Source: Oligoflexus sp. (lineage in GTDB: Bacteria > Bdellovibrionota_B > Oligoflexia > Oligoflexales > Oligoflexaceae). Taken from it: a DNA stretch of 37,232 nt. A program made the position numbers. This document shows, one piece after another, positions 34,001 through 37,232 of this stretch. Positions within the stretch are counted from its first letter, which is position 1. Each line of letters opens with the position of its first letter. The stretch is taken from assembly GCA_041736305.1 (NCBI GenBank), contig JBGSTX010000238.1, forward strand, positions 1 through 37,232, written 5' to 3'.

Positions 34001-37000
34001 TCAGAATTTTGTCTCTGAAGGGACGTATTGACTGACAGAATGAGGAAAAGTATCACAGCCTCGAACGCCTGATCAAGTTGAAAGGCATTGATCTTTTTAT
34101 CTTTATTATCAGTAAGTTAAATTATTAATGGGCTGTGGATAAGCCCTGGAAGAGGCTGTGTCGCAGAGTCAAAATTGTAGGATTCTATCTTAGTTCAGAA
34201 CCTGTTAGGTCTGACATTGTGAGATGTCATTCGAGGGAGAGAGGTACAAACGTTGAAGAATTTTCAAAACTTTGGTTTGGTGATGGCTGCAAATTTCGAA
34301 ACCATCGTCTACATGGGCCTGGCCTGGTTTTTTGCAGGATACTTAAACACGAATTACCCACAGGATTATGACTGGGCAAAAGTAACATATGTTTTGGGCT
34401 TGATTCTCATCGCACGCTCTTGGTATGTCGTCTTCCGCGTTTTGATCCGCTCTCAGCAAAAGCTAAGTCATGAAGCCCAGGCCACTGAAGGTCGTTTGAA
34501 AGATAAAACTGATGCAAGATAAGTTTGGACTCATTGTTCTCGGTCTCGTTGGGATTATTCTCTTCCTCTTGGCGTATTCATTCCTCGCTCCGCTAGATGC
34601 TGTCGCAGTTGGTGCTGGATACTTACTTTTTTCTGGCAACTACGTCCTCATTGCCAGCGTAATGGGGCGCCTGCTCATCTACAGCAGTGGCAAGAATTCC
34701 CGTACGGCCCTTACTTTGATCAGCGGTTTGAAGTTTTTTGGCCTTTTTGGGCTCCTCTACTTTCTGCTCGTTACCTGCGATCTCTCTGGGCTCTATCTAG
34801 CCTTCGGCGCATTGATATCTCTCTTAGTTTTGAGCGCTGTCCTCTATGTGGGCTATCTGCGTACGCTCGATCCTTCCGAAGCGCCTCGAGTCTAAGGCGG
34901 CTTTGCATTTTAGACTGTTCAACAGACTCGAAATCATATAGTAAAGACATCCATTTCTATATGCGTCGGGAAGAAAGGATTGTCTCCGTATGGATAAGAA
35001 GACTTTTAAAATTCTCGTCCCTTTGATGATCCTGGGCTGGAGTGCCTCTGCATGGGCTGCCGGTGGCGGAGCGCCCATCATCAGCTACTACGAGATCCTC
35101 CTTCACGGTTTGGGCTTAGATCATCATCAAATCGAAGAGTGGAAGCCGGTCATAGGCGCACTCATGACTTTGCTCTTAACCTTGCTAATCGGGCTGTCAT
35201 ACAAGAAGTCTGTTCAAAAAGCAGGCAGTGATGTGAGTCCAGTTGGGCGATTCAGTCTACGTGGTGTAGTCGAGATGGTTCTCGAATTCGTGCAAGGTAT
35301 AGGCACCAATATTCTCGGGGAAGAAAAGGTAAAACCTTTTTTACCGACCTTGTTTGGTTTATTTCTCTTCATTTTCATCAGTAACCTTCAAGGCCTTGTA
35401 CCTGGCTTCACGCCTGCAACTGACAGTATCAACACCAATTTAGTCCTTGGGCTTTTCATATTTCTTGTTTTCAATGCAGCTGGCATTCGAGAGCACGGCT
35501 TGCTTGGCTATTTGCGTACCTTTGCAGGTCCGCTTCTCGTTATGATGCCGATTATATTTCTCATCGAAAGCGTAGGCATGTTGGCAAGGCCACTTTCGTT
35601 AGCTTTACGTCTTTATGGCAACATCTTTGGTGATCACCTTGTTCTTTCGGTGTTTACTGACCTGACGAAGCTTGTGTTGCCTTCATTGCTAATGTTTTTC
35701 GGACTGCTTGTAGCCTGTCTGCAAAGCTTCGTGTTCACACTGCTGAGCAGCATCTATATTCTCATGGCGATTTCCCATGATCATTAACGTTTCCATTTTT
35801 TGTATGCGGGGTACCTATGAAGCGTAAGTATTTTAATTTTGTGGCTATTTTGAGTGGCATCCTCGTCAGCTCGCTCGCCATGGCTCAAGAAGGTGCAGCC
35901 AGCGGTTCAATGTCAGGTTCCGGCCTCATCGCTGTGGGCGCTGCTTTGGCGATTGGATTGGCTGCTCTTGGTGGTACGCTTGCTCAGGGTCGTGCCGCAG
36001 ACGCCGCACTTTCTGGTATTGCTCGTAACCCTACATCGGCTGATCGCGTGTTCACGCCAATGATCATCGCCCTTGCTCTGATCGAATTCCAAGCCATCAT
36101 GGGCTTTATCGTAGCGTTCCTTCTCTACGGAAAAGTCTGAGTTATATTGGTATACATAGTCTTCCTAGCAGATGAGTGTTCCACGTGGAACACTCAAGCC
36201 CTTCCTTGAGTACACCCCGCCAAATACCTTTATCTATTTTTGATGTTCCACGTGGAACATTTGAAAGACCAGTCACTATTTTCATGATTAAAAACTATAT
36301 GTTCCACGTGGAACATAGTGTCCGTTCGCGACCCGGCTGTGCGCCTCTCGAGATGTTCCACGTGGAACATTCGATCGCTTTTCTGTTGAACCGAAGTATC
36401 TATGTTCCACGTGGAACATTTTTATGAGTTTTGAACAAAATACTGCCTCGTGTTCCACGTGGAACATCATCTTTCCTGCCAAACAAGACATTTTTTATTA
36501 TTTAGGACAAAAACCAGGCGAATGTTCCACGTGGAACATCTCAACGGCATATTTCGACTAAAAAACGTCTTTTTCGACCAAATTTTGTGTTTTTCTTAGT
36601 TTTTGAGCAAATTTCACTCGAAAATAGAGAAAAAGCGTAGAAAAAGTCTGAAAATGGACATTTTCGATGAATTAAGACCGAAAAAGATGAATTTTGTTCG
36701 TCTAGAAGTGAAAATGGCAGAAAACTAGGCTTTTTGAGGGGAGCAATAGCGAGGAAATGTTCCACGTGGAACATTAGTTCGGTTTTTTCTGATTCTAAGA
36801 GTCGAAAAAACGCAAAATTAGCGAGTTTTTGCTGTATCGACACTGAAAGGTGTTTTTCCACCGAGATATGTTCCACGTGGAACATGTGGTTTTGATCATT
36901 TCTTCAATGTTCCACGTGGAACATCGGAGTCCACCTCTTCTGGCAATGTTCCACGTGGAACATCGGAGCCCAACCTTTGGCAATGTTCCACGTGGAACAT

Positions 37001-37232
37001 CAGGGCCCGACCTCTTTGGCAATGTTCCACGTGGAACATCCGGGCCCGACCTCTTTGGCAATGTTCCACGTGGAACATCCGGGCCCGACCTCTTTGGCAA
37101 TGTTCCACGTGGAACATCAGAGCCCGACCTCTTCTAGCAATGTTCCACGTGGAACATCGGATCCCGACCCTTTGGCAATGTTCCACGTGGAACATTGGAG
37201 TCTACCTCTTCTGGCAATGTTCCACGTGGAAC

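Follow-up and report, generated by a model that had tools for sequence, protein, structure and literature searches.

Organization of the parS locus

The window, by which we mean the whole 37,232-nt stretch of an Oligoflexus genome (G000) that was analyzed (contig C114), carries a probable replication origin between dnaA and dnaN, the ATP synthase genes atpB and atpE, and a dense cluster of 16-bp palindromes that runs off the contig end (Table 1). The origin was called with a standard DnaA-box consensus. At no more than one mismatch there are 15 such boxes in the window versus 5.6 expected, and 8 of the 15 lie inside the called interval. The first palindrome is 3.7 kb from this box cluster. The far side of the locus is found on a second contig, C192, where parB adjoins the array. 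The ATP synthase cluster is split, with the array and parB standing between atpB-atpE and atpF'-atpF-atpH-atpA-atpG-atpD-atpC.

Table 1. Features of the parS locus and its surroundings (positions refer to C114 unless C192 is given)
Feature	Position	Strand	Basis or remark
gyrB	28525-31074	-	same strand as dnaA
dnaN	31084-32202	-	same strand as dnaA
Probable oriC	32291..32468		7 perfect + 1 one-mismatch DnaA boxes, dnaA-dnaN spacer
dnaA (522 aa)	32488..34056	-	Bac_DnaA 9e-70, Bac_DnaA_C 3.7e-28
atpB (ATP synthase subunit a)	34990..35787	+	ATP-synt_A 2.8e-45
atpE (ATP synthase subunit c)	35817..36140	+	ATP-synt_C 1.1e-17
First parS	36177..36192		~35 bp past atpE stop
Dispersed zone, 8 more exact parS, unrelated spacers	36244..36884		spacing and exact search; starts 36244, 36300, 36354, 36403, 36451, 36523, 36758, 36869
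AT-rich parS-free stretch within array	36540..36757		GC ~0.34
Tandem zone, units 37-40 bp (one parS + 21-24 nt spacer)	36905..37232		runs off contig end
Tandem zone, continued	C192:51093-51246	reverse complement	4 units at 38 bp
Proximal parS	C192:51046-51061		between tandem zone and parB
parB	C192:50028-50927	-	adjoins array

An exact search of the window for the 16-mer TGTTCCACGTGGAACA gave 17 matches at 36177-37194, and no match in any of 100 dinucleotide-preserving shuffles. An 18th copy (37218-37232) is cut off by the window end, with 15 of its 16 bases present. Across the whole genome (5.02 Mb) the exact copies number 22: C114 has 17, five lie at C192:51046-51222, and there are none elsewhere (0 expected), in agreement with the genome-wide survey's note, which had placed all 22 in one locus between atpE and parB; the first site, put there at 36178, starts at 36177 on recount. 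Genome-wide, the reversed control pattern gave no match and copies with one or two mismatches were likewise absent; the eight words with three mismatches are spread over eight other contigs. Counting the 14-base core instead gives 23, which includes the cut-off copy.

Start-to-start spacings are irregular in the first part of the array (67, 56, 54, 49, 48, 72, 235, and 111 bp) and nearly uniform in the tandem part (39, 39, 37, 39, 39, 39, 40, and 38 bp), where Tandem Repeats Finder reports a period of 39 with 8.5 copies and 91% matches (36905-37232). Because the C114 tandem unit recurs as its reverse complement at the end of C192, the two contig ends are the two ends of one array, which has no fewer than 23 sites over 1.26 kb or more and whose repeat contains both breaks. 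The survey's description of a tandem array of at least 22 sites is right on the number of exact copies but overstated as to their arrangement: only 13-14 of the 22-23 are head-to-tail, namely 13 full units and one cut-off unit (at least 13 had been claimed, ending both contigs), and the other nine sites are dispersed, with unique spacers. Word depths in run X1 hint that the gap hides more units, for a total of maybe ~30 sites: summed depth is 92-167 over repeat bins, compared with a flank value of 7.24, and reaches 75.4 for a single 65-nt unit record. The tool warns that such word depths are not copy number, and we do not count them as evidence. In many of the genomes examined, arrays of this kind interrupt the short-read assembly at the origin.

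Several other readings of the array sequence were considered. Three open reading frames, at 36176-36427 (+), 36288-36491 (-), and 36541-36885 (-), were not accepted as genes, having no match in Pfam. An Rfam scan of 34000-37232 with E up to 1 returned nothing beyond sub-threshold matches to microRNA and snoRNA hairpins, which are owed to the parS palindromes; we propose no RNA gene. The terminators predicted in the array are those palindromes themselves. A promoter scan gave two promoter-like matches versus 1.6 expected, which is chance level. Comparison of the AT-rich gap with the equivalent gap of five congeners (six species together) revealed no conserved element.

Identity of the palindromes

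The 16-bp palindrome fits the universal parS consensus tGTTnCACGTGnAACa. It is identical to the probe parS66 of PMC3597684, and it agrees at 15 of 16 bases with the EMSA oligonucleotide bound by Myxococcus xanthus ParB (PMC3778016). None of its 16 columns varies among the 22 sites. Identification as chromosomal parS, proposed in the survey's note, is well supported at the level of sequence, given that all criteria tested agree: the consensus fit, a single origin-proximal locus, an adjoining ParB, a conserved position, and an invariant core.

The ParB encoded next to the array, with the array directly upstream, is the only canonical ParB of the genome. It has the three expected domains (CTPase, HTH, and C-terminal dimerization; ParB_N 2.6e-32, HTH_ParB 1.3e-35, and ParB_C), its NPKQPRK and GERRWRAS motifs are intact, and its best solved relatives are ParB/Spo0J chains (top 7bnk, 6e-57). 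SMC is represented by two halves, each at the end of a contig (506 and 395 bits, each alone below the 567-bit cut-off), and the kleisin ScpA is present (8.7e-21).

It could be argued that the array serves chiefly as an operator for transcription, through which ParB or another CACGTG-binding protein regulates parB and atpF-atpC, with chromosome organization secondary or absent. The array does immediately precede parB and the atpF'-atpC genes, which share one strand, and plasmid partition repressors are known to act at operator arrays in front of par operons. However, the sequence is that of the universal chromosomal parS, all its copies are confined to the one origin-proximal locus, and autoregulation would need just one or two copies; we regard this option as very improbable. 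Operator and chromosome-organization roles are compatible with each other.

Arrays across the genus and order

The 14-base core was found in 14 of 14 Oligoflexus genomes, in 1-28 copies each, and the array keeps its place in every congener examined. Each genome has a single parS variant, with species-specific spacers and tandem periods within 25-49 bp: 25-26 bp in G011; 34-41 bp in O. tunisiensis and G013; 39 bp in G001 and G010; 40 bp in G002; and 49 bp in G003. The cultured type strain, O. tunisiensis Shr3, has 15-16 sites, and one 174-kb metagenome contig (L075) spans a complete array of 22. A solitary first parS just past an atpE-like ORF also occurs in G011 (C202:924) and at loci L018, L020, L021, and L022; the ORFs of L018 and L020 are 73% and 85% identical to the AtpE of G000. 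Outside the genus, genomes of the order have up to 10 sites, and two of them (G028 and G029) have dense arrays. Clustered parS occur order-wide, and large tandem arrays (25-49 bp, up to 28 sites) mark Oligoflexus. The genome scans, 304 in all, stayed within this bacterial class. The earlier claim that dense arrays are confined to the genus holds for the large tandem ones but not for density as such, and the maximum in the rest of the order is 10, not 7; the contrast is one of degree, not kind. A literature search combining Oligoflexus and parS returned no title on partition among the matches listed.

Given this variability, it is reasonable to ask whether only a few sites function, the tandem block having arisen by replication slippage and unequal exchange as a satellite, either neutral or selfish, whose copy number is not adaptive. 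Unit length and spacers do differ between species, identical neighboring units occur, and summed word depths (which, the tool warns, are not copy number) hint at a copy-number difference between two close strains. Furthermore, one parS is enough in several model species, according to a review (PMC7333895). Set against this, 15 of 24 columns vary among the homologous tandem spacers (n = 12, 8 distinct variants), while the core is the same at all 22 sites (Fisher p 3.6e-5, a rough test on columns). Spacers that diverged around unchanged cores, together with dispersed sites that are equally perfect despite unrelated spacers, imply purifying selection or conversion acting on every copy. Large arrays also persist genus-wide, and we consider the satellite reading unlikely.

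Absence of parA from the locus

A ParA orthologue (77-100% identity) was found in 9 of 13 congeners, and in those with parA a 272-280 aa ParA is encoded directly between the array and parB. As the survey's note had reported, the G000 assembly yielded no orthologue; it is 92.7% complete, and the best tblastn matches in it are 27-31% identical. Three other ParA-like ATPases are encoded in G000. The weaker ParA-like genes on C128 and C87 have their own orthologues in 13/14 and 14/14 genomes of the genus, and are thus paralogues rather than the missing ParA.

The absence extends beyond a single assembly. In G000 the array lies ~120 bp from parB with no parA between them. In G011, a sister species, an array with a 26-bp period is ~300 bp upstream of parB, again without parA, and a 16-nt junction motif is common to G000 and G011 only. 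The two are sisters in the GyrB tree (support 100/98), which was used because a ParB-only tree, joining them in just 20% of bootstraps, left their placement unresolved. An independent study (run X7) supplies a 7665-nt contig that spans parB and the junction and reaches as far as the second parS, without parA; with 27 differences from G000 in 2081 bases, it represents a 98.7%-identical strain. The same order of array then parB, ~135 bp apart and without parA, is seen in metagenome contig L067. Searches for a parA remnant at the G000 and G011 junctions returned only tblastn noise (E >= 0.12). Three further genomes (G002, G009, and G012) have neither parA nor parB; their arrays end contigs, so they have no say either way. 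Runs X2 and X3 were rejected as evidence on habitat or strain, having matched only palindromes of other organisms.

ParB itself has changed in these lineages. The N-terminal ParA-activating motif LGKGLG(S/A)LLGL is kept in 8/8 congeners and 7/7 metagenome loci with parA, and is altered at its glycines in 3/3 ParBs whose loci lack parA (G000, G011, and L067). The G000 protein has a branch length of 0.38-0.46 versus a median of 0.066, and the GyrB branch of the same genome is at the median. The G000 ParB retains a partial K-G-L-x-A-L-L-G, given which some ParA-type contact is conceivable. Of what defines a tripartite ParABS system, then, G000 lacks a Soj-type parA alongside parB and has an altered ParA-activating peptide, whereas ParB, parS, SMC, and ScpA, the components of a ParA-less ParB-parS-SMC system, were all found.

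A rival reading is that G000 has an ordinary ParABS system whose parA went unassembled, either in the gap between repeat blocks or on a short contig dropped by binning. Each of the two contigs breaks off within the array, and a repeat-flanked parA would drop out of the assembly; the smallest contig kept is 1663 bp, completeness is 92.7%, the data are contigs and not raw reads, and most congeners do have the gene. However, because the array abuts parB, parA cannot sit in its ancestral place, and the same arrangement recurs in G011, the X7 strain, and L067. Motif decay is confined to exactly the three ParBs named above, and is seen in 0/15 lineages with parA. Recovery of the two paralogues tested in 13-14 of 14 genomes also indicates that gene recovery is good. 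We therefore consider an assembly artifact improbable. What is new here is an array abutting parB without parA in G000, G011, the X7 strain, and one metagenome contig, and by these sequence comparisons the lineage seems to have lost its ParA motor. The term "centromere", in its motor-driven sense, may be inapplicable without ParA. Arrays are as large in relatives that keep the gene (28 sites in G001, 22 in L075), so array size is not a consequence of parA loss.

A proposed role and its implications

Our preferred interpretation, to which we assign a probability of roughly 0.78, is that the parS region of G000, with its 23 or more sites, has had parA deleted and works without ParA as a platform for ParB. 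In this view, large arrays are an ancient feature of the genus with fast turnover, in which unit length and spacers are species-specific and the palindrome is kept. Each parS would load one CTP-bound ParB dimer, which would close as a clamp and slide onto adjacent DNA, and many neighboring sites together would give rise to a single ParB complex of very high density at the origin. With parA deleted from between the array and parB in the G000 lineage, and with the ParA-activating peptide decayed, the array most likely works without a ParA motor, giving ParB a platform from which to load SMC and organize the origin, as in Streptococcus pneumoniae. ParB binding, clamp loading, SMC recruitment, and ParA-independent segregation are thus predicted properties of the locus.

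More speculatively, the arrays may behave like true centromeric satellites, whose tandem units expand, contract, and homogenize around a fixed core, with one sub-lineage now motor-free, its array a dense platform with which ParB has begun to co-evolve; we lean against this wider scenario but find it worth stating. If it is true, a single culturable genus contains members that have parA and members that lack it, and site numbers from 1 to >25, a natural series that could directly test why parS copy number varies.

Why bacteria have from 1 to ~24 parS, and why these are clustered, is a question posed in a ParABS review (PMC7333895). Oligoflexus is an extreme case, with up to 28 sites and spacing down to 25-26 bp, near back-to-back packing of ParB dimers. 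Unit length, copy number, and presence of parA vary between sister species, and the type strain is cultured, making the questions raised testable: how loading-site density affects clamp loading when clamps cannot easily pass each other, how it relates to ParB complex size and SMC recruitment, and what becomes of a ParB-parS module after motor loss outside Firmicutes.

Comparison with known systems

For Bdellovibrio bacteriovorus, the model of the phylum, two parS sites are described, and deletion of parA and parB proved impossible (PMC10547168). A close chromosomal counterpart is M. xanthus, with 24 parS, most within 3 kb (bioRxiv 10.1101/2021.05.05.442810). Both have many chromosomal sites of near-same sequence upstream of the par genes, and 7bnk is the closest solved relative of the G000 ParB. 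However, the G000 array is denser, with 37-40 bp head-to-tail units, is nearer oriC (3.7 kb versus ~30 kb), and consists entirely of identical perfect palindromes. It also comes without parA, in contrast to M. xanthus, for which parAB is essential (PMC3778016).

In architecture, the tandem zone is like sopC of plasmid F, described in PMC3597684 as a 43-bp unit repeated 12 times in tandem, with a ParB-family protein binding the single 16-bp inverted repeat of each unit; G000 likewise has head-to-tail ~40-bp units with one 16-bp inverted repeat each. sopC differs in being a plasmid type Ia centromere with another site sequence (same source) and a SopA motor. The G000 site is instead a chromosomal parS, on a replicon with dnaA, dnaN, gyrB, oriC, and atp genes, and no cognate ParA was found for it.

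In composition, G000 resembles the ParA-less ParB-parS-SMC systems of S. pneumoniae and Staphylococcus aureus. Those are systems of Firmicutes with few parS sites, whereas in G000 the array is very large and the apparent loss of parA is recent, inside one Bdellovibrionota genus that otherwise keeps the gene.

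Layout of the parS array

The array lying between atpE and parB in this Oligoflexus genome (G000) is built from a 16-base palindrome, TGTTCCACGTGGAACA, that we read as the ParB-binding site parS. The window contains 17 exact copies (36177-37194), with an 18th cut off by the window end, and there were 0 copies in every one of 100 dinucleotide-preserving shuffles of the window. The whole 5.02-Mb assembly has 22 exact copies, 17 on contig C114 and five in the terminal 200 bases of contig C192, a lower bound because both contig ends fall within the array. Neither a reversed control pattern nor parS copies with one or two mismatches were found in the whole assembly, and the eight words with three mismatches are all scattered singletons.

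There are two zones, dispersed and then tandem (see table). The end of C192 is the reverse complement of the window's tandem unit family and shares one spacer variant with it, so the two contigs carry opposite ends of a single array with an unassembled middle. In all, 13 full tandem units and one truncated unit were assembled. Summed word depth over the repeat (92-167 vs. 7.24 in the flank) hints at more units than this, although such depths, as the tool warns, are not copy numbers. ORFs within the array had no matches, and an Rfam scan of it returned nothing real.

The 12 homologous tandem spacers differ from one another at 15 of 24 aligned columns and fall into eight distinct variants. The parS core has 0 of 16 variable columns among all 22 sites, and the nine dispersed sites are equally perfect although their flanks share nothing. 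An invariant core with variable spacers is evidence that the predicted sites are under selection.

Coordinates of the features and tandem periods of related arrays
Feature	Position	Description
Probable oriC	C114:32291-32468	within 285-bp dnaA-dnaN spacer; 7 perfect DnaA boxes + 1 with a single mismatch, 4 per strand
ATP synthase genes, first part	C114:34990-36140	atpB-atpE
Dispersed zone	C114:36177-36884	9 parS sites, unrelated spacers, spacings 48-235 bp
AT-rich stretch within dispersed zone		~220 bp, parS-free
Tandem zone	C114:36905 onward	head-to-tail 37-40 bp units, past contig end
parB	C192:50028-50927 (L015)	
smc, two pieces	C155:18950-21118; C254:4875-6266	model positions 2-720; 716-1181
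Second ParA-like pair	C128:24407-26355 (L006)	302 aa (AAA_31, 4.6e-43) + ParB_N-like, 345 aa (weak)
Third ParA-like gene	C142:40030-41804 (L007)	287 aa, then 304-aa protein
G011 array	C357:1-130; C202:1-110 (L040, L038)	period 25-26 bp
G012 array	C73:23560-24348 (L036)	period/spacing 37-38 bp
L073 array		period/spacing 32 bp
O. tunisiensis (G013) array		period/spacing 34-41 bp
L075 array		period/spacing 36-38 bp
G001 and G010 arrays		period 39 bp
G002 array		period 40 bp
G003 array		period 49 bp
G008 array		period/spacing 58-65 bp

Origin and gene neighborhood

Upstream of the array, gyrB, dnaN, and dnaA are on the minus strand, and atpB and atpE precede it on the plus strand. The DnaA-box cluster, the signature of which is textbook, is the probable oriC; it lies 3.7 kb from the first parS site. 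Read in reverse, C192 continues from the proximal parS through a ~120 bp spacer to parB, atpF', atpF, atpH, atpA, atpG, atpD, and atpC (the names after parB being assigned from order and sizes only). The ATP synthase genes form two groups. Between them are the array and parB, and in congeners parA as well, a layout conserved in the genus.

By its sequence, the ParB is a canonical one, with ParB_N, HTH_ParB, and ParB_C domains and intact NPKQPRK and GERRWRAS motifs, and its closest solved relatives are ParB/Spo0J chains. It is 69-77% identical to the proteins of Oligoflexus MAGs and O. tunisiensis Shr3, and the named relatives retrieved with it assign the genome to Oligoflexus (Oligoflexaceae, Bdellovibrionota).

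Arrays across the genus and order

Counted by the 14-base core GTTYCACGTGRAAC, sites occur in 14 of 14 genomes of the genus (1-28 each). Elsewhere in the order, 81 genomes have 0-10 sites, the same range as in the 97 non-genus genomes of order and class with completeness of at least 85%. Based on the genome-by-genome core counts, clusters in which several sites fall within 1-2 kb are typical of the order. Dense arrays outside the genus were found in two genomes (G029, seven sites with a 43-bp period; G028, 10 sites). It is the very large tandem arrays that characterize the genus. One metagenome contig of 174 kb (L075) carries a complete array, 22 sites in 2.7 kb; because it spans the whole array, arrays of such size are real and not assembly artefacts.

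Spacer sequences differ by species, one parS variant dominates in each genome, and a solitary parS just past atpE is conserved across the genus. No helical phasing of sites is conserved among species, which would favor independent loading sites over a phased nucleoprotein structure. The array of the sister species G011 (16-bp site plus 9-10 bp spacer) is the tightest packed within the survey and ends both of its contigs. That of the congener G012 has a two-site higher-order unit of ~75 bp, in which spacers and parS variants alternate, and includes several decayed parS copies (1-3 substitutions).

A sub-lineage apparently without parA

In congeners, including O. tunisiensis, a Soj-type ParA (272-280 aa) is encoded directly between the array and parB. 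Orthologues occur in nine of 13 congeners (77-100% identity to the protein of L018, a parA-bearing relative), and none was found in G000, G002, G009, G011, or G012. G002, G009, and G012 are uninformative because their arrays end contigs and parB is missing as well. The best ParA matches in G000, ParA-like genes on C128, C87, and C142, are only 27-31% identical. Those on C128 and C87 have their own orthologues in 13 and 14 of the 14 genus genomes, parA-bearing ones included, and are therefore paralogues.

The C128 gene, which in O. tunisiensis lies well away from the parS locus, is paired with a ParB_N-like gene whose product lacks HTH_ParB; the two may form a positioning module of ParA/ParB-like type that has nothing to do with parS. 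The C142 gene is followed by one for a repetitive protein that is rich in lysine and alanine and weakly resembles histone H1-like HC2. A large ORF is close by, and the set may be a mobile element's partition module.

In G011, an array with a 26-bp period lies ~300 bp upstream of parB, with no parA. A 16-nt junction motif occurs in G000 and G011 only, the rooted GyrB tree makes them sisters (support 100/98), and no parA remnant is detectable in either array-parB junction. The simplest reading is a single parA loss in their common ancestor. The junction is arranged likewise in two more independent records, both of them assembled contigs. One, of 7665 nt, is from run X7 of a different study; it reaches from parB across the junction into the first two parS sites, and 27 differences were counted over 2081 bases. 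The other, the metagenome contig L067, has eight sites, a 37-bp tandem block, ~135 bp, and then parB (76% identical over the full length of the protein), with no parA. Of eight metagenome loci with upstream DNA, parA is present in seven and absent in one.

There is a small chance that parA is present in G000 after all, flanked by repeats on both sides, given that both contig ends are inside the array and that no contig shorter than 1663 bp was retained. What we regard as the strongest support for a loss is molecular in kind. The ParA-activating N-terminal motif of ParB, LGKGLG(S/A)LLGL, is invariant in 8/8 parA-bearing congeners and 7/7 parA-bearing metagenome loci (five distinct N-termini), and has different glycine substitutions in the parA-less G000, G011, and L067, the remainder of ParB being conserved. 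The ParB branch of G000 is 0.38-0.46 vs. a median of 0.066 (about 5-6x the genus median), with its GyrB branch at the median, suggesting that ParB evolution may have accelerated following parA loss. Because equal-sized arrays occur with parA (G001, L075), array expansion preceded the loss and was no compensation for it.

Proposed function

By what is established about ParB, its CTP-bound dimers would load at each parS, close as clamps, and slide outward, so that a dense ParB complex would form at the origin. In parA-bearing congeners, this complex would be the cargo of ParA; in the parA-less lineage, it most likely serves only SMC loading and origin organization, a role described for the ParB complex of S. 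pneumoniae and S. aureus (PMC7333895). Both SMC and ScpA are present in G000. SMC is found as two halves (506 + 395 bits) at contig ends, which is an assembly break and no evidence for a split gene.

Comparison with known systems

B. bacteriovorus, the phylum's model organism, is reported to have two parS sites, and neither its parA nor its parB could be deleted (PMC10547168). M. xanthus has 24 parS sites, most within 3 kb (bioRxiv 10.1101/2021.05.05.442810), but that cluster is ~30 kb from oriC, as opposed to 3.7 kb here, and parAB is essential (PMC3778016; bioRxiv 10.1101/2021.05.05.442810). We found no paper on partition in Oligoflexus, most subscription journals being outside the search coverage. 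The tandem zone resembles sopC of plasmid F, described as 12 tandem 43-bp units with one 16-bp inverted repeat in each (PMC3597684), except that its head-to-tail units are 37-40 bp. The Oligoflexus locus is a chromosomal array of predicted parS sites that combines a record density with a tandem architecture like that of plasmids. It may be evolving in the manner of a satellite, and the genus has one ParA-less sub-lineage.
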